Part shown: positions 9,668-38,740 of the stretch, in pieces
Layout: every line of letters starts with the position of its first letter
Numbering within the stretch: the first letter of the stretch is position 1
NCBI GenBank assembly: GCA_036644995.1
Contig: JAVXOZ010000002.1
Coordinates: 50,128 to 114,127, forward strand
Direction: 5' to 3'
DNA: 64,000 nucleotides
Origin: Clostridiales bacterium
GTDB lineage: Bacteria > Bacillota > Dehalobacteriia > UBA7702
The notes under the pieces: generated by a model
Seen by the model: the letters and a program-made list of their open reading frames with translations, nothing else
What the model was told of the DNA's origin: nothing
Database searches by the model: none
Program-made: the position numbers and the translations under genes

Positions 9668-10507
9668 TTAGTTTACCCTATTTTTTTCTTTTATTGCCAA
9701 AAATAAATTCTCGGCAACAAGGCGGGTTGTTAATTGATATTCCAAGTACATCATAGCTTTATTGGTTTCTTCCCAAAGCTTAAGTAGAATATCATCCCCA
9801 AATTCCGAACTATTTAAAAGATAAGCTGCTTCCCCTGTGTGGGAAACTCTATATCCGTAATTTCTGCTTAAAATTTCTGCCATGGCGGCGATGATGGTTT
9901 TTAGTTTTTCACGGTCTGTTTCTTTGTTTTTTTCTTTGGCGTAGGTTTCTGCGGTTAAAAGCAAATAATCCATATTGTTTTGGGGTAAGGAGGTTAAAAG
10001 TTCAAAGGCTTCCTCCAAATTTTCGCTTTTTAGGGTTTTTGCCTCGCCATTATATCGCAAAATACGGCAGCGGCTTTCAATGGTGGCCAAAGTTTTATCC
10101 CCATTGGTGGAAAGGAGTAAAAAAACGGTATTTTCCACGGGTTCTTCCAAGGTTTTTAATAGGGCATTGGCGCAAACTTCGGTTAATTTATCTGCATCTA
10201 TAATCATAAAAATGCGAAATTCCCCTTCTTGGGCGGAGAACTGCACTGTTTTTATTAAATCTCTTATTTGTTTTATTAAATATGTGGTTTTTTCCGGACG
10301 AATTACAGTGAAATCGCTGAAGCATTCATTTTTTCCCAAGGTGCAGGGGCGGCATTTGCCACAAGGCATTGAATTTTTAGGGTTTTTGCAATTTAGGCTT
10401 AAAGCAAAATCCATGGCATCTTTTAAAATCTCATCTTTTTCGCCGTATAGCAAATAAGCGTGGCTGATATTTTTTTCTTTTAGGTCTGTTTTTAATTCTT
10501 GGTGCAT
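9668..10507 (-). CDS. holB: DNA polymerase III delta' subunit
   Basis: HAYLLYG... clamp-loader AAA+ fold with Zn module CGKCRPC; overlaps tmk as in the Bacillus tmk-holB operon. Confidence 0.85.
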   Translation of the reverse strand: MHQELKTDLKEKNISHAYLLYGEKDEILKDAMDFALSLNCKNPKNSMPCGKCRPCTLGKNECFSDFTVIRPEKTTYLIKQIRDLIKTVQFSAQEGEFRIFMIIDADKLTEVCANALLKTLEEPVENTVFLLLSTNGDKTLATIESRCRILRYNGEAKTLKSENLEEAFELLTSLPQNNMDYLLLTAETYAKEKNKETDREKLKTIIAAMAEILSRNYGYRVSHTGEAAYLLNSSEFGDDILLKLWEETNKAMMYLEYQLTTRLVAENLFLAIKEKNRVN

Positions 10508-11415: not shown

Positions 11416-12555
11416 ATGAAAATGGAAAAAGAGTTGGAACAGTATCTAACTGCATCTATGACCAAATTAGTTAAAGATGTGCTAAAATCAACCTTGAAAA
11501 ACCCCAAAGAAACGGCTTTTTTGATTAAGAGCACTAAAAATATGGAAATTATGCACCAACGGCGAAAAGATATGGGGGATCGGGGCAATAATATACCCGG
11601 GTTTTTAATTGCCAGCATTACCAATGCCTGTAATTTATTTTGCAGTGGCTGCTATGCCCGTGCCAATGGTATGTGCAATGATGATGAAGCTGAGGCACTT
11701 TTAACTGCTGAGGATTGGGAATCTATTTTTTCCCAAAGTGCCAAAGTGGGGATTGCCTTTATCCTTTTGGCAGGTGGCGAGCCTTTGCTGCGTAAAGATG
11801 TGATTAAAACCGCCGCAAAATTTAAAGAAATTGTTTTTCCTGTTTTTACCAACGGTACAATTTTAGATGATGATTATTTGCGGTTCTTTGATGAAAACCG
11901 CAATATGGTGCCGATTTTAAGCTTGGAAGGAAATCATAAAGAAACCGATGAACGCCGAGGTAAAGGTGTTTATCAACGGCTATACCATAGCATGAGCGGC
12001 TTGAAAACAAATAAAATATTATTTGCTGCTTCCCTTACGGTTACTACGGAAAATATTGATAAAATAACTGCCGTGGAGTTCATTGAGAATTTGCAAAACC
12101 ATGGTTGCCGTGGAGTTTTATTTATAGAATATGTAGCCGTTGACGGCAAAACCCAAACTTTGGAAATTGATGAAAAAGGCCGTGAAAAATTGGAAAAACG
12201 TCAAGAATCTCTGCGTAAAAAATTCCCCGCCATGGTGTTTATTTCTTTCCCCGGTGATGAAAAACAAATGGGGGGTTGTTTGGCAGCGGGGCGAGGTTTT
12301 TTTCATATCAGTCCCCAAGGCAATGCCGAGGCTTGCCCATTTTCTCCCTTTGCAGATTGTAATTTAAAAGAGGTTTCCCTGTTGGAAGCCTTAAAATCAC
12401 CTTTTTTTGATATGCTGCGGCAGAAGCATTTGGTGGGTGGTGAACATAGTGGCGGCTGTGCTCTGTTTCAAAGAGAAGCCGAGGTTAAGGAGTGTTTAAA
12501 GGTGGCAAAATTGAATAAAACGTTGGAGGTGGAGCATGATTTACAGAAAAGCTAA
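11416..12555 (+). CDS. Radical SAM enzyme with C-terminal SPASM/twitch-like Cys cluster; unknown substrate
   Basis: CNLFCSGCY (Cx3Cx2C) at residues ~72-79, GGEPLL, and a C-terminal GGCLAAGRGFFHISPQGNAEACPFSPFADC. A ~70 aa N-terminal extension precedes the cluster. The stop overlaps the next gene by 20 nt. Confidence 0.8.
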   Translation: MKMEKELEQYLTASMTKLVKDVLKSTLKNPKETAFLIKSTKNMEIMHQRRKDMGDRGNNIPGFLIASITNACNLFCSGCYARANGMCNDDEAEALLTAEDWESIFSQSAKVGIAFILLAGGEPLLRKDVIKTAAKFKEIVFPVFTNGTILDDDYLRFFDENRNMVPILSLEGNHKETDERRGKGVYQRLYHSMSGLKTNKILFAASLTVTTENIDKITAVEFIENLQNHGCRGVLFIEYVAVDGKTQTLEIDEKGREKLEKRQESLRKKFPAMVFISFPGDEKQMGGCLAAGRGFFHISPQGNAEACPFSPFADCNLKEVSLLEALKSPFFDMLRQKHLVGGEHSGGCALFQREAEVKECLKVAKLNKTLEVEHDLQKS

Positions 12556-13003
12556 AATAGATGATGTGGAACAGATTTATCAGCTTATTATGGATTATGC
12601 CAATGAAGGGCTGATGTTGGCAAGACCACGGCAAGGGATTTATGCAGGTATCCGTGAATATATTGTAGGGGAAAATTCCACAGGTGAGGTGGTTGCCATT
12701 GGTGCTTTGCGGATTTTGTGGAGCGATTTGGCGGAAATTTGCTCCTTAGCTGTGCGTGAGCCTTATTTGAAAAAAGGGATTGGCAAAAAAATAGTTGAAT
12801 TACTGGAAAATGAAGCCGAGGATTTACGGATTCCCCAAATTTTTGCTTTAACCTATCAACAAGGGTTCTTCTTGAAATGCGGCTTTAATTCCGTGGAACA
12901 CAGTGCCTTGCCCCAAAAAGTTTGGCGTGATTGCATAGATTGCCCTAAGTTTCCTGATTGTGATGAGAAGGCGGTATTAAAAAATACTTCCCATAATGGG
13001 TGA
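12536..13003 (+). CDS. argA: GNAT N-acetyltransferase, short-form N-acetylglutamate synthase (S-NAGS/ArgA-like)
   Basis: 155 aa. The block VVAIGALRILWSDLAEICSLAV...GIGKKIVELL...IFALTYQQGFF is colinear with my recollection of mycobacterial short ArgA (GALHVLWSDLGEI...GIG..IV..LL). Lies immediately upstream of argH. Confidence 0.6.
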   Translation: MIYRKAKIDDVEQIYQLIMDYANEGLMLARPRQGIYAGIREYIVGENSTGEVVAIGALRILWSDLAEICSLAVREPYLKKGIGKKIVELLENEAEDLRIPQIFALTYQQGFFLKCGFNSVEHSALPQKVWRDCIDCPKFPDCDEKAVLKNTSHNG

Positions 13004-13268
13004 TAGCAGGGAAACTCCCCAAACTGAGACCGCTTATGTATTATATATACACTGCACGTCCTCATTTTGGTGTGTTCCCCTGTTCTAACCCATTCTTGAA
13101 AGTATTTTTGTTGCCCATAGGAGATAGCAGGGAAACTTTTTTGAAAGTATTTGTAGTGCCCAAAGCATATAATAAGGAAACTTTTTTAGCAAGGTTAACT
13201 TGTTTTAAAAATTTCCATATAAAATTTAAGATGATTTATTGGACAAGTTGTAATAACGGAGGTTTGTG

Positions 13269-15828: not shown

Positions 15829-17007
15829 ATGGAATATAGAAAAAATCCCAAAAACGGTGATAAGCTTTCTGTTTTAGGTTATGGCTGTATGCGATATACC
15901 AAAAAAGGCGGCAGTATCGACCAAGAAAAAGCAGAAAAAGAGATGCTCTACGCCTTGGAGCACGGGGTAAATTATTTTGATACCGCCTATGTTTACCGTG
16001 GCTGTGAAGTGGCATTGGGGAAGTTTTTAGCCAAAGGACATCGTAAAGATGTTTATATAGCCACAAAATTACCCCATTATCAGCTTAAAACCTTAGATGA
16101 TGCCCAGCGGATTTTTCAAGAGGAATTAAGCCGCTTGCAAACCGACTATATCGACTATTATTTAATCCATATGCTCACCGATGTGGCTGCTTGGCGCCGT
16201 TTGGAAAAAATGGGATTGGGAGATTGGCTGGAGCAAAAGGTTAAAAACGGAGAAATCCGCAATGTGGGTTTTTCTTATCACGGGGGAACCAAAGGCTTTA
16301 TTGATTTAATAGATGCTCACCCTTGGGATTTTGTGCAAATACAGTTTAATTATATGGACGAACATAGTCAAGCAGGGCTTAAAGGCTTGAAATATGCGGC
16401 GGCTCAAGATATCCCTGTGATAATAATGGAGCCTTTGCGTGGTGGGCGTTTAACTGTGGATTTGCCCCCAAAAGCCAAAGATATATTTGCCCAAGCCCAG
16501 CCGCCCAAAACAGCGGCGGAGTGGGGTTTGCGGTGGATTTGGAACCACCCCGAAGTTACCGTGGTGCTATCGGGAATGAACGATATTTCCCAAGTTACGG
16601 AAAATGTGGCAGTGGCAGATGTTGCTTTAGCTAATTCTTTAAGTGATGAGGAATTGGCTATTTTTCCAAGGGTGAAAGAGGCTATTGATAAATCCGTAAA
16701 AATACCCTGTACAGGGTGCGGTTACTGTATGCCCTGCCCTAAGGCCGTGGATATACCCAATGCTTTTCGTAGCTATAATGTGAGTTATAGCGATGGCTGG
16801 TATCACGGTATTCGGGAGTATTATATGGCTACCACTATGCGTACTAATCCTACCAATGCCGGTCTTTGTGTGCAATGTGGCAAATGTAAAAAACATTGCC
16901 CCCAAAGTATTAATGTGCCCGAAGAAATTTTGAAAGTACAAAAGAGAATGGAAAATCCCCTATATAAATTAGTGGCTAAGTTTTCTAAATATTTTGTGAA
17001 ATTTTGA
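15829..17007 (+). CDS. Aldo/keto reductase fused to a C-terminal 4Fe-4S ferredoxin domain
   Basis: N-terminal AKR fold (GYGCMRY, catalytic Y/K) plus C-terminal CTGCGYCMPCP and CVQCGKCKKHCP. Confidence 0.85.
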   Translation: MEYRKNPKNGDKLSVLGYGCMRYTKKGGSIDQEKAEKEMLYALEHGVNYFDTAYVYRGCEVALGKFLAKGHRKDVYIATKLPHYQLKTLDDAQRIFQEELSRLQTDYIDYYLIHMLTDVAAWRRLEKMGLGDWLEQKVKNGEIRNVGFSYHGGTKGFIDLIDAHPWDFVQIQFNYMDEHSQAGLKGLKYAAAQDIPVIIMEPLRGGRLTVDLPPKAKDIFAQAQPPKTAAEWGLRWIWNHPEVTVVLSGMNDISQVTENVAVADVALANSLSDEELAIFPRVKEAIDKSVKIPCTGCGYCMPCPKAVDIPNAFRSYNVSYSDGWYHGIREYYMATTMRTNPTNAGLCVQCGKCKKHCPQSINVPEEILKVQKRMENPLYKLVAKFSKYFVKF

Positions 17008-17057
17008 CAAATTTTCCATAATGGCGGATATGGAGAAAACTTAAAAAATTTACGGGT

Positions 17058-17181
17058 AGGCTGTTGATAAAGTCTGATATTCGGTAAAATCCCTTCCCAT
17101 CCACTGCCTATGCACATATAGGTACACTGCACAGTGGCTGTTCAGGGAGTTTTACCGAATCTAAGGCTTTCTTAACAGCCT
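17058..17181 (+). repeat. Interspersed ~124 bp imperfect-palindromic repeat, copy A
   Basis: AGGCTGTTGATAAAGTCTGATATTCGGTAAAATCCC...GGGAGTTTTACCGAATCTAAGGCTTTCTTAACAGCCT; terminal inverted repeats with a palindromic core. Followed by GACAATCTG. Bracketed by the 17 bp direct repeat TTAAAAAATTTACGGGT (17041-57 and 17194-210). Confidence 0.9.
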
Positions 17182-17310
17182 GACAATCTGCACTTAAAAA
17201 ATTTACGGGTTTATCTGCATTAAAGCACATTGCATCTCCATATTTTTAGGTTTTAGTGAGTTTAAGCTTTCTTAAATCTTTGGAATTTATGGATTATTGC
17301 TAAATTAAAT

Positions 17311-18354: not shown

Positions 18355-18459
18355 GAAAACTTTACCTCCCAAAAATAGTAGCTTTAATAAAAAGTCAAAA
18401 ATATTATAACATATTTTGTTTAGTAAGGATAGATAAGACTTTTTAAAATAGAAATCTTT

Positions 18460-18573
18460 AGGCTGTTTATAAAGTCTGATATTCGGTAAAATCCCTTCCC
18501 ACCCACTGCTTATGTACATCTAAGTATACTGCATAGCCGCTGCTCAGGGAGTTTTACCGAATCTAAGGCTTTC
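18460..18573 (+). repeat. Interspersed palindromic repeat, copy B
   Basis: AGGCTGTTTATAAAGTCTGATATTCGGTAAAATCCCTTCCCACCCACTGCTTATGTACATCTAAGTATACTGCATAGCCGCTGCTCAGGGAGTTTTACCGAATCTAAGGCTTTCTTAACAGCCT, with the right-hand extension ATCTTGCCAAAAAACTATGTTTTT. Confidence 0.9.
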
Positions 18574-18668
18574 TTAACAGCCTTACATCTTGCCAAAAAA
18601 CTATGTTTTTCAAAAATCTTTTTAATCACTCATTATTGGCTTGGGTATTTGGTAAAAGCCAAAGGAAT

Positions 18669-18731
18669 ATTCAGTGTTCTATATCTAACATTCAGTGTTC
18701 TATATCTAACATTCAGTGTTCTATATCTCAA
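18669..18731. repeat. Tandem direct repeat, 21 bp x 3 (ATTCAGTGTTCTATATCTAAC)
   Basis: Two exact copies plus one variant copy in the spacer between repeat copy B and the end of arcC. Confidence 0.9.
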
Positions 18732-18825
18732 TATGGGGAATGGTTTTTGTTTGGTAAAAAATATGGAATACAGCCGTGTGTAAATTTTTAAGGAATACAC
18801 TTTGGTATAAAGCATGGTAATGGAA

Positions 18826-18880
18826 AACCGCACCAAATTGATGTTGCCTATGTTTTATAATCATTGGCAATTTGGTGCGG
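18826..18880 (-). terminator. Hairpin downstream of arcC (13 bp stem CCGCACCAAATTG/CAATTTGGTGCGG, 27 nt loop)
   Basis: Perfect 13 bp inverted repeat 25 bp past the arcC stop; short T-run on the minus strand. Confidence 0.4.
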
Positions 18881-18904
18881 CTTGTAATCTATTTTAATTT
18901 AGTG

Positions 18905-19849: not shown

Positions 19850-19916
19850 GTTTCTCCTTAATGGTCTGAAAATTTCCCTTAGAGCAATATCCTTCAGATT
19901 GATGAAAATTGCACTT

Positions 19917-20039
19917 AGGCTGTGGATAAAGTTTGCTATTGGGCAAAATCCCTTCATCGTGACTGCTTATGTACATCTAAGTACATAAGCAGACGCTGCT
20001 CGGGGAGTTTTACCGAATCTAAGGCTTTCTTATCAGCCT
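19917..20039 (+). repeat. Interspersed palindromic repeat, copy C (inside the agmatine deiminase operon)
   Basis: AGGCTGTGGATAAAGTTTGCTATTGGGCAAAATCCC...TGCTTATGTACATCTAAGTACATAAGCAG...GGGGAGTTTTACCGAATCTAAGGCTTTCTTATCAGCCT. Extension ...TTTTTGACAATCTG runs to 20075. Bracketed by the 20 bp direct repeat AGATTGATGAAAATTGCACT (19896-915 and 20076-095). Confidence 0.9.
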
Positions 20040-20133
20040 AATATCTTGGCAAAAAACTATGTTTTTGACAATCTGAGATTGATGAAAATTGCACTAACGG
20101 CTTTTAAATCTGTTGATAGTAATTGGTGTTATT

Positions 20134-25543: not shown

Positions 25544-25820
25544 ATTAACCAAATATATTACAGTAATTTGTGATACAATGGCATAATTATTAAGTAGACA
25601 TCTGAATTTAATCAATCTATAATAAACTTAAACTATGTTAAATTATTTTGAAAAGACTTTGGGCTTTTGAAAAATATGATAATAGGTAAATTCGCCAATC
25701 CCACCTTGCTTATGCACAATAAAGCACACAGCAAGTTTTAGGGTTGGCGTGTTTCCCTGTTTTAGGCTTAAGCCAAAACGCACCACTTGTATGATTGCAT
25801 TTTGTAGGACGAGGTTATTT

Positions 25821-36477: not shown

Positions 36478-36600
36478 AGGCTGTGGATAAAGTTTGATAT
36501 TTGGCAAAATCCCTTCCCACCCACTGCTTATGTACATATAGGTACACTGCACAGTGGCTGTTCAGGAGTTTTACCGAATCTAAGCCTTTCTTAACAGCCT
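36478..36600 (+). repeat. Interspersed palindromic repeat, copy D
   Basis: AGGCTGTGGATAAAGTTTGATATTTGGCAAAATCCC...GGAGTTTTACCGAATCTAAGCCTTTCTTAACAGCCT + GACAATCTGA. Confidence 0.9.
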
Positions 36601-36696
36601 GACAATCTGAATTATATAAGGTTACGCAAATTTTTTAGAAACCTAATAACTGTTTTAATTGCTAACTAAAACCAAATATTTGATATGAGGTGATTT

Positions 36697-37660: not shown

Positions 37661-37881
37661 TTATTTTAGATTTTAACAAATTCTGGTATTGAGATAAAAC
37701 TTTGAGTTTTTTGAAATATAATATGGAAAAGATAAGGAAATTGCAGTTTTTGGGAATTTGTCGGTATATGTGATTTTATAAAGCTATGGGTAAAATATTT
37801 GGTTTATTGGTCTATATATAAGGAAGAAAAAAATAAATAATTATATTGGGGTTGCCCAGAGTCCACTTGAGTTTTTTATTG

Positions 37882-37946
37882 AAGTGAATCCTTTTCATTA
37901 GACATATGTTTTGTTTAACGAAAGGGATTCACTTTAATTTTTATTT
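37882..37946 (+). terminator. Intrinsic terminator-like hairpin (13 bp stem AAGTGAATCCTTT/AAAGGGATTCACTT) + T-rich tail
   Basis: Inverted repeat followed by TAATTTTTATTT; ~220 bp downstream of the channel gene. Confidence 0.45.
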
Positions 37947-38074
37947 AGGGGCTTTTTTATGGTTAAATAAAGGGTAAAGCCATATTTTTTAATATTAAGA
38001 AGTGATGCAATAATAGAGTAAGGCATATTTTTTATTTAAGGGTATAATTTGGCAATAATTGGAGAACATAATTT

Positions 38075-38445
38075 AGGCTTTGGATAAAGTCTGATATTCG
38101 GCAAAATCCCTTCATCGTGACCGCTTATGTACATTTAAGTACACTGCACGTCCCCGATTCCGTGAGTTTTGCCGAATCTAAGCCTTTCTTCAAAGCCTAT
38201 GATTAGGATAAAGTCTGATATTCGGCAAAATCCCTTCATCGTGACCGCTTATGTACATTTAAGTACACTGCACGTCCCCGATTCCGAGAGTTTTACCGAA
38301 TCTAAGCCTTTCTTCACAGCCTATGATTAGGATAAAGTCTGATATTCGGCAAAATCCCTTCTCAGCCACTGCTTATGTACATCTATGTACACTGCATAGC
38401 CGCTGCTCAGGGAGTTTTGCCGAATCTAAGCCTTTCTTAACAGTC
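38075..38445 (+). repeat. Three tandem copies (E1 38075-38198, E2 38205-38321, E3 38328-38445) of the interspersed palindromic repeat, immediately upstream of the rpoB promoter
   Basis: Each unit is ~120 bp (AGG(CTTTGG)ATAAAGTCTGATATTCGGCAAAATCCC...GAGTTTT(A/G)CCGAATCTAAGCCTTTCTT(C/A)A(A/C)AGCCT). Units are separated by ATGATT. The last is followed by GACAATCTGA. Confidence 0.9.
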
Positions 38446-38504
38446 TGACAATCTGAGAACATAATTTTGACTGTTTTATTTTTTTAAGTTTTTTAAGATT
38501 AAGG

Positions 38505-38533
38505 TTGACAATTTTGCTTAGTAATGGTATTAT
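38505..38533 (+). promoter_or_regulatory. Sigma-A promoter for rpoB-rpoC (TTGACA -17- TGgTATTAT)
   Basis: Perfect -35 TTGACA (38505-10), 17 nt spacer, extended -10 TGGTATTAT (38525-33); ~200 nt leader to the rpoB ATG. Confidence 0.6.
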
Positions 38534-38740
38534 ATTATAATGCCTTATTTATACAATAGGTACAATAGGCATTGAAATTTGATAATTTTCCATGAGGTGG
38601 CTGTCCGGTTTTATTAAGGCTAATTGCCAATGAAACAATTTCTCGGGCTTGCGGTAAGGCGAGAAATGGACACTTCGGGGTCTTGCGGTAAGGCTTTGAA
38701 AAGTCTCTCTTAATTAAATATTTGAGAGGTGGTTTGCTAC

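Follow-up and report, generated by a model that had tools for sequence, protein, structure and literature searches.

A small palindromic element with long, variable target-site duplications in an uncultured Clostridiales species

The direct repeat that brackets copy A, a 124-bp palindrome with a short tail, is the true target-site duplication of a 153-bp insertion. Copy A is best read, at a probability of roughly 0.7, as a small MITE-like element, non-coding and non-autonomous, that inserted recently; its target would be cleaved with a variable stagger and in a structure-sensitive way. Coordinates given without a contig handle are those of the window, the whole stretch of 64,000 nucleotides that was analysed. 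Copy A consists of the following parts.

17039..17057 (+), left target-site duplication; 17 bp certain (17041-17057), 19 bp counting AC.
17058..17181 (+), 124-bp imperfect palindrome, AGGCTGTTGATAAAG…CTTTCTTAACAGCCT (nhmmer E = 5e-40).
17182..17191 (+), short tail, GACAATCTG plus C, from alignments; GAYAATCTG in other copies.
17192..17210 (+), right target-site duplication; exact repeat.

The 17-mer TTAAAAAATTTACGGGT has two matches in the window, at 17041-17057 and 17194-17210, even when up to two mismatches are allowed (0.11 expected); none of 100 shuffles reached two matches, and none of 300 shuffles gave as good a repeat in the test of the flanks. The initial annotation, which had reported an exact 17-bp repeat around the 124-bp palindrome and its tail (insert of ~136 bp), was correct in coordinates, size and description. 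Between the repeats lie the palindrome and then the tail GACAATCTG(CAC); if AC is assigned to the target and not to the tail, the repeat takes its 19-bp form, ACTTAAAAAATTTACGGGT, at 17039-17057 and 17192-17210. The outer arms of the palindrome measure 32 nt and are 84% complementary, and its folding energy is -60.2 kcal/mol (z = -6.3 on the plus strand, z = -5.5 on the minus strand). On the minus strand, tail and right arm (17158-17186) together form a -35/-10-like pair, TTGTCA-17 nt-TAGATT, that faces into the palindrome and is conserved at this position in other short-tail copies; in a promoter/terminator scan, promoter-like sites in the element region were not in excess of shuffles.

Empty sites were sought among contigs that code for an identical copy of the 392-aa protein with its end at 17007. 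Two filled alleles (L001, L002) were identical to the window, and a third contig (L003), which stops just within copy A, was counted as filled. In two independent assemblies from related strains, MAG GCA_036658495.1 (L004) and a Logan assembly of SRR25820361 (L005), the 392-aa gene is followed by a single 17/19-mer without the element, and this single repeat runs directly into TTATCTGCATTAAAGC…. The spacer 3' of the gene is 332 nt in L004 versus 484 nt in the filled alleles, and the filled allele exceeds the empty one by exactly the element and one repeat copy, that is, 153 bp. Either an insertion mechanism generating long duplications or pre-existing short tandem repeats had been proposed at the outset; the empty sites decide for the former, as each holds one 17/19-mer, the opposite of two 17-mers without the element, and a pre-existing tandem repeat is thereby excluded at copy A. 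The empty alleles differ from each other by single bases and represent two flanking haplotypes, whereas the filled alleles are all identical, which indicates a recent, derived insertion and fits an origin of copy A on one haplotype. Among all loci, copy A is the one with an empty-site control: for copies B, C and D, searched through their neighbouring proteins, no empty site was found, the contigs either carrying the copy or stopping inside the repeat.

Seven units of the palindrome are present in the window at five loci (A, 17058; B, 18460; C, 19917; D, 36478; E1-E3, 38075-38446), together with more distant relatives.

18460..18613 (+), copy B with long tail; palindrome 18460-18583; antisense to the flanking minus-strand genes.
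19896..20095 (+), copy C; palindrome 19916/7-20040; long tail 20041-20075.
36478..36609 (+), copy D with short tail GACAATCTG; in all strains examined.
38062..38467 (+), locus E, three tandem units, 38075-38198, 38199-38322 and 38323-38446; tail 38447-38455.
12993..13102 (+), related second palindrome family; core GACCGCTTATGTA…TACACTGCACGTCC (nhmmer E = 2.5e-9).
25662..25758 (+), divergent relative of the palindrome family (E = 4.8e-6).

Copy C is enclosed by a perfect 19-20-bp duplication, AGATTGATGAAAATTGCACT (19896-19915 and 20076-20095). The tandem array E, with a period of 124, has a single perfect 12-13-bp duplication, (G)AGAACATAATTT, round the whole array (38062/3-38074 and 38455/6-38467). 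At copy B a possible 8-bp duplication, AAATCTTT (18452-18459 and 18614-18621), is doubtful, and copy D shows no convincing flanking duplication, TATATA only.

The genes around the window copies are housekeeping genes: argH, an aldo-keto reductase with Fe-S domains, arcC and aguA (copy C lies between these two minus-strand genes), and further an ornithine carbamoyltransferase, an oligopeptide ABC transporter, rpoB/rpoC and ribosomal proteins; no transposase is found among them. Locus E sits upstream of rpoB, in a stretch of ~1 kb before that gene which is free of ORFs (37661-38728). The gene upstream of rpoB encodes a potassium-channel-like protein, not rplJ/rplL, and in one MAG (L092) it is split into two called genes. 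The palindrome at 12993-13102 has its apical core in common with E1/E2 and differs in its outer arms; the stop codon of ORF 12536-13003 falls within the palindrome. After it, upstream of argH (12993-13187), two 45-nt tandem units repeat part of the left arm (CCCAT/AAG…GATAGCAGGGAAACT). Divergent hairpin repeats of similar design (ATAAAG…GG-AAA…GCYTATG…) occur on the same strand at 18800-18885 and 25662-25758. The interval from copy B to arcC contains a perfect tandem repeat (18669-18728) with 2.9 copies of the 21-bp unit ATTCAGTGTTCTATATCTAAC; one unit fewer is found at the locus in a sister MAG (L008), so its copy number is polymorphic.

In all copies the element starts with (T)AGGCTG, the palindrome closes on CAGCCT, and the tail ends in GAYAATCTG, often followed by A; the left end reads TAGGCTGTKGATAAAG and the right end, in reverse complement, (T)CAGATTGTC. 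Element length is 134-160 bp. Tails are short, 9-10 nt (GACAATCTG), at A, D and E3, and long, ~35 nt (GAYATCTTGSCAAAAAACTATGTTTTTGACAATCTG), at B and C, where ~26 nt (…ATCTTGSCAAAAAACTATGTTTTT) precede the short form. Because the long tail starts and finishes with near-repeats (GAYATCT / GACAATCT), the short tail seems, from these sequences, to have arisen from the long one by slippage deletion. Terminal inverted repeats are present, but the right end bears the unpaired 9-35 nt of the tail in addition. No truncated copies were seen among 19 loci, save at contig ends, and no copy carries an A-rich terminal tail. Six-frame translations of the element are interrupted or lack a start codon. Rfam gave no match in the window at gathering score and chance-level matches only on the element (E of at least 0.3). 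Across 13 copies the arms are nearly invariant, so that in a covariation analysis selection on an RNA is not separable from a DNA inverted repeat.

Further copies were obtained by translating the element and searching a protein collection for spurious ORFs called inside copies. Four 'hypothetical proteins' led to four further contigs of the same species (L094, 10001-10126; L096, 10001-10174; L108, 1-191; L109, 2501-2671), and look-ups at the window edges added two more (L099, L101). With a profile of the palindrome, copies were found at 19 loci in ~142 kb of one uncultured Clostridiales species, a sample of ~5% of one genome in which four contigs had been picked via ORFs called inside elements; a copy density of this order implies a few hundred copies per genome. 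Exact-pattern scans of GTDB species genomes, JGI metagenomes (two patterns) and IMG/VR returned no copies, and BLASTN against plasmids and phages found none either. The closest rpoB in GTDB, from uncultured Firmicutes/Bacillota, is ~81% identical, and none of 80 rpoB loci from relatives has an element copy; the range of the family seems to be limited to one uncultured lineage. In public MAG annotation, 'hypothetical proteins' of 41-62 aa are mere translations of the repeat. MAG and Logan contigs end inside copies (L003, L009, L010, L091, L099, L108), which shows that the repeat fragments assemblies. Some 4.5-5 kb beyond the right end of the window (L101, 14470-14890), an array of ~19-nt units, AGCATGGCAGAATCTAATA / AGCTTAGCAGAATATAGAA, follows rplQ; the length of this array differs in three MAGs (spacers of 728, 513 and 589 nt), and L101 has a run of N there.

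The flanks of all copies (19 loci, ~142 kb) were inspected for duplications. By eye, 14 of 18 complete loci have a locus-specific flanking repeat and four do not; of ten loci put to a shuffling test, eight had a significant repeat, each beyond all 300 shuffles. For L101, L099, L108 and L109 the duplications come from inspection of the flanking sequence, and boundaries are ambiguous by 1-2 nt.

Copy A: 17-19 bp, perfect; empty site verified.
Copy C: 19-20 bp, perfect.
Array E: 12-13 bp, perfect; one repeat for all three units.
L096, pair at 9859 and 10049: 9 bp, perfect; one repeat for both units.
L108rc:287: 21 bp, perfect.
L108rc:4419: 21 bp, perfect.
L096:6404: 10 bp, 1 mismatch.
L101:20173: 19-20 bp, 1 mismatch.
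L109rc:1387: 16-18 bp, 2 mismatches.
L099rc:3596: 24-26 bp, 2-3 mismatches.
L094: 27 bp, 4 mismatches.
L096:379: 33 bp, 6 mismatches.
Copy B: 8 bp, doubtful.
L099, tandem pair: flanking repeat not assessable, as it runs off the contig end.
Copy D, L096:13112, L109rc:10112 and the variant at L108rc:1782: no flanking repeat.

Duplications thus range from 8 to 33 bp, six of them perfect (9, 12-13, 17-19, 19-20, 21 and 21 bp). Copies other than A, too, have flanking repeats of their own, and the length is not fixed at the 17-20 bp noted initially but spreads over 8-33 bp. The two composites, the L096 pair (9859/10049) and the triple array E, each lie inside a single duplication, which fits a free pairing of ends, in which any left end would move as one piece with any right end. 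On the reverse strand of L109 (~1340-1600), the duplicated 16-18 nt (TGCACCTTYGTGYATT) pair with either an upstream or a downstream segment, and these alternative pairings resemble alternative terminator/antiterminator hairpins.

At six loci (L101, L099rc:3596, L108rc:287, L108rc:4419, L094, L096:379) the duplicated segment is a stem-loop, with the feet of the stem 0-2 nt from the 5' and 0-4 nt from the 3' boundary of the duplication. Duplication length follows hairpin size, from 19 to 33 bp. Several of the duplicated stem-loops are textbook intrinsic terminators with a T-run, e.g. TCGGTGCCACAAAGGCACCGT|TTTTGTTTGG; the insertion point at hairpin targets is the 3' foot of the hairpin, directly ahead of the T-run, and the result is a hairpin without T-run to the left of the element and a complete terminator to the right. 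A rule by which every duplication is a hairpin was rejected: the targets with short duplications (A, C, E, L096 b+c, 6404, B) fold no better than shuffles. Hairpins thus affect how far apart the two target joints lie, without being required. In older hairpin duplications the differences between the two copies are partly paired, e.g. GCTCCCG/CGGGAGC versus GCTCCCC/GGGGAGC at L094, a pattern that intra-strand templated repair in quasi-palindromes would give. For the mismatched duplications of hairpin type (L094, L096:379, L099) another origin is in principle possible.

At all 19 loci the direction from palindrome to tail lies on the strand of positive GC skew (G-rich), whatever the orientation of neighbouring genes; the two-sided probability is ~4e-6 if the loci are independent. 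This strand is also that of rpoBC, the ribosomal operons and gyrBA, and it was called leading from GC skew and gene orientation, not from a mapped origin. Copies B and C keep to it within a minus-strand operon (arcC-aguA), other copies lying in convergent or divergent intergenic regions, so that the bias follows the replication strand and not local transcription.

From these observations we infer staggered cleavage with fill-in, an enzyme acting in trans and a coupling to the replication fork. The enzyme would join the defined ends of the element to a target opened by staggered breaks, and repair synthesis over the stagger would produce the flanking direct repeat. In unstructured AT-rich DNA the stagger would vary between 8 and 21 bp; at an inverted-repeat target, e.g. 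an intrinsic terminator, each foot of the stem-loop would receive one of the two breaks, the hairpin would be duplicated in its entirety (19-33 bp), and hairpin plus T-run would be restored downstream of the element. Insertion would be strand-specific relative to replication, from palindrome to tail along the G-rich leading strand. That the stagger jumps to the full length of the stem-loop points to recognition or cutting of a target that is extruded or single-stranded, a state in which the two feet are neighbours.

Neither a transposase or other candidate enzyme nor a longer element or parent IS with the same ends was seen in the ~142 kb surveyed, and a screen of unannotated neighbour genes for nuclease or transposase domains gave nothing relevant. 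A stand-alone GIY-YIG protein of 85 aa (L108, 8410-8667; Pfam E = 9e-21) is encoded ~160 nt from a divergent copy; it is of a widespread stand-alone type, with nothing to indicate a functional link. Besides the lack of an enzyme gene in this survey, other observations count against staggered cleavage of a MITE-like element as proposed here. The ends are not a simple inverted-repeat pair, with 9-35 extra nt on the right, and are not of the TG…CA/TGT kind that is typical of DDE elements; and duplication length is far more variable than in any characterised MITE, with four loci lacking a clear duplication.

It is a tentative thought, with the odds against it but worth keeping in view, that the mechanism is one undescribed for bacterial repeats, specific for the replication strand, with breaks or re-priming points set by the feet of stem-loops and carried out by HUH or Cas1-like enzymes or by target-primed copying at the fork. 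If this were true, the family would be a new class of mobile element, not a MITE of the DDE type, and whole terminators would be copied on both sides of it.

Rather unlikely, in our estimate, is replication-coupled copying without a classical DDE transposase, in which a single-stranded form of the element, DNA or RNA, would be copied into the chromosome at the fork, either through target-primed synthesis or through a template switch by the nascent strand. In the template-switch scheme the nascent strand would leave at the T-run 3' of the hairpin, copy the element and re-anneal upstream; with the fresh hairpin folded, re-annealing would occur at its 5' foot, and the target would be copied twice. 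Duplication of a whole hairpin is what slippage on a nascent-strand hairpin predicts, and the absolute strand bias relative to GC skew (19/19 loci), the T-rich target at the insertion point, the asymmetric 3' tail with its defined end and the foldability of the entire element as a single strand agree with such a scheme, as does the variable duplication length, known from target-primed retrotransposition. Against it, both ends are precise in all copies, which is unexpected for pure template switching; microhomology at the junctions is at most 1-2 nt, the chance level; neither 5'-truncated copies nor an A-rich tail were seen; and no reverse transcriptase or HUH gene is present in the DNA surveyed.

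For copy A itself, the element might be old at the site and the empty alleles precise deletions by recombination between the 17/19-bp repeats, which we consider improbable. A palindrome enclosed by long perfect direct repeats is prone to slippage deletion, and polarity is not fixed by an outgroup, as no close relative was found in the searches. Two distinct empty haplotypes facing one uniform filled haplotype speak for insertion, however, as does the perfection of the copy A repeats, unlike those of the older loci L094 and L096:379; and even with deletion the repeat would still originate as a target duplication.

Very improbable is an integrase of the Cas1/casposase kind, or another that recognises junctions, attacking both borders of a palindrome and leaving hairpin-element-hairpin in the manner of repeat-spacer-repeat. 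The six duplications that are stem-loops bounded at their feet have the geometry of the repeat duplicated in CRISPR spacer integration. At least seven loci, however, have non-folding duplications of 8-20 bp; casposon duplications are of a fixed 14-15 bp, unlike the variable ones here; the strand bias would be unexplained; and no cas1-like gene is present in the DNA surveyed. The idea that the direct repeats predate the element, which would have landed in a short tandem duplication, or are att-like cores borne by the element, draws on nothing beyond the bare presence of repeats and can practically be set aside: the first form is refuted for copy A by the single repeat in the empty alleles, and the second fails since a repeat sequence that is different at every locus cannot be element-borne.

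The way a transposable element cuts its target is read chiefly from its target-site duplications, which in bacteria have a short, constant length for each enzyme. Duplications of 8-33 bp, hairpin-sized where the target is a terminator hairpin and on one replication strand, point to an unusual integration geometry. The family could help to explain the variable repeats of IS1549/IS1634, and it could show how insertions beside terminators spare them, as the duplication rebuilds hairpin and T-run downstream. On the practical side, repeats of the element break MAG assemblies and produce spurious 'hypothetical protein' calls.

Known MITE families make a short duplication of fixed length, TA or 2-9 bp. 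Like MITEs and palindromic intergenic repeats, the element has young copies with target duplications and insertions that are polymorphic between strains; with Correia/NEMIS, ERIC, RUP, bcr1 and RPE it has in common that it is small, non-coding, AT-rich, intergenic, multi-copy and able to form a long hairpin. It differs from known MITEs in its duplication of 8-33 bp or of a whole hairpin, its one-sided tail and its complete replication-strand bias; the earlier judgement that it is not typical of known MITEs holds, with duplications of 8-33 bp that often comprise the whole target hairpin. Under the generic definition of a MITE (PMC10969869), the element is below 500 bp, lacks coding capacity, has terminal inverted repeats and has a target-site duplication verified by an empty site; the autonomous parent IS with matching ends that the definition places in the same or a related genome was not seen in the ~142 kb surveyed.

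IS200/IS605-type elements insert 3' of a fixed tetra- or pentanucleotide without duplication, and group IIC introns insert just 3' of intrinsic terminators. IS200/IS605 derivatives, REP/REPIN and group IIC introns resemble the element in hairpin use, strand bias or terminator association, the strand bias relative to replication being common to IS200/IS605; none of IS200/IS605 derivatives, REP/REPIN and class C group II introns is known to make target duplications. An IS200/IS605-type element was rejected on account of the varying left flanks (GGGT, CACT, ATTT, GCTT, AATT, GATA and CGTC among others) and the duplications, and a group II intron or other structured RNA because no Rfam family matched and no intron-like RNA was found. 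REP sequences are described in PMC3733652 as 20-40 bp long with GTAG/CGTC heads; a REP/REPIN mobilised by a RAYT was rejected, as the palindrome is 124 bp, has no GTAG/CGTC head and is flanked by duplications. Of the traits of a SINE-like, target-primed retroelement, the variable duplication is present here, and an A-rich 3' tail and truncated copies are absent from the 19 loci.

The IS1202 family, with IS1549/IS1634 among the nearest precedents, has very long duplications, in a size range common to many copies here; they are fixed per subgroup at 5-6, 16-17 (ISTde1) or 27-28 bp (IS1202), the ends start with 5'-TGT, and the ISTde1 subgroup occurs in Firmicutes (bioRxiv 10.1101/2022.12.17.520857). 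A derivative of this family was rejected, the ends here being (T)AGGCTG / (T)CAGATTGTC, not TGT, and the perfect duplications varying from 9 to 21 bp within one family. The closest behavioural precedent is IS1549/IS1634, the only characterised bacterial elements reported with long variable direct repeats (8-514 bp), for which no mechanistic model is given; within the IS1634 family these are reported for two members only, most having 5-6 bp (PMC2266710). The long variable duplication is common to both, whereas IS1549/IS1634 are autonomous elements of 1.5-2 kb with a DDE transposase and the present element is small, with no such transposase found in ~142 kb. Compared with the IS1634 end consensus, C-----YT, the right end read inward, CAGATTGT, has C at position 1 and G, not Y, at position 7, and the left end does not fit. 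Set beside these systems, the element is a lineage-restricted, recently active, high-copy hairpin element with long, variable, often hairpin-sized duplications and a replication-strand orientation.
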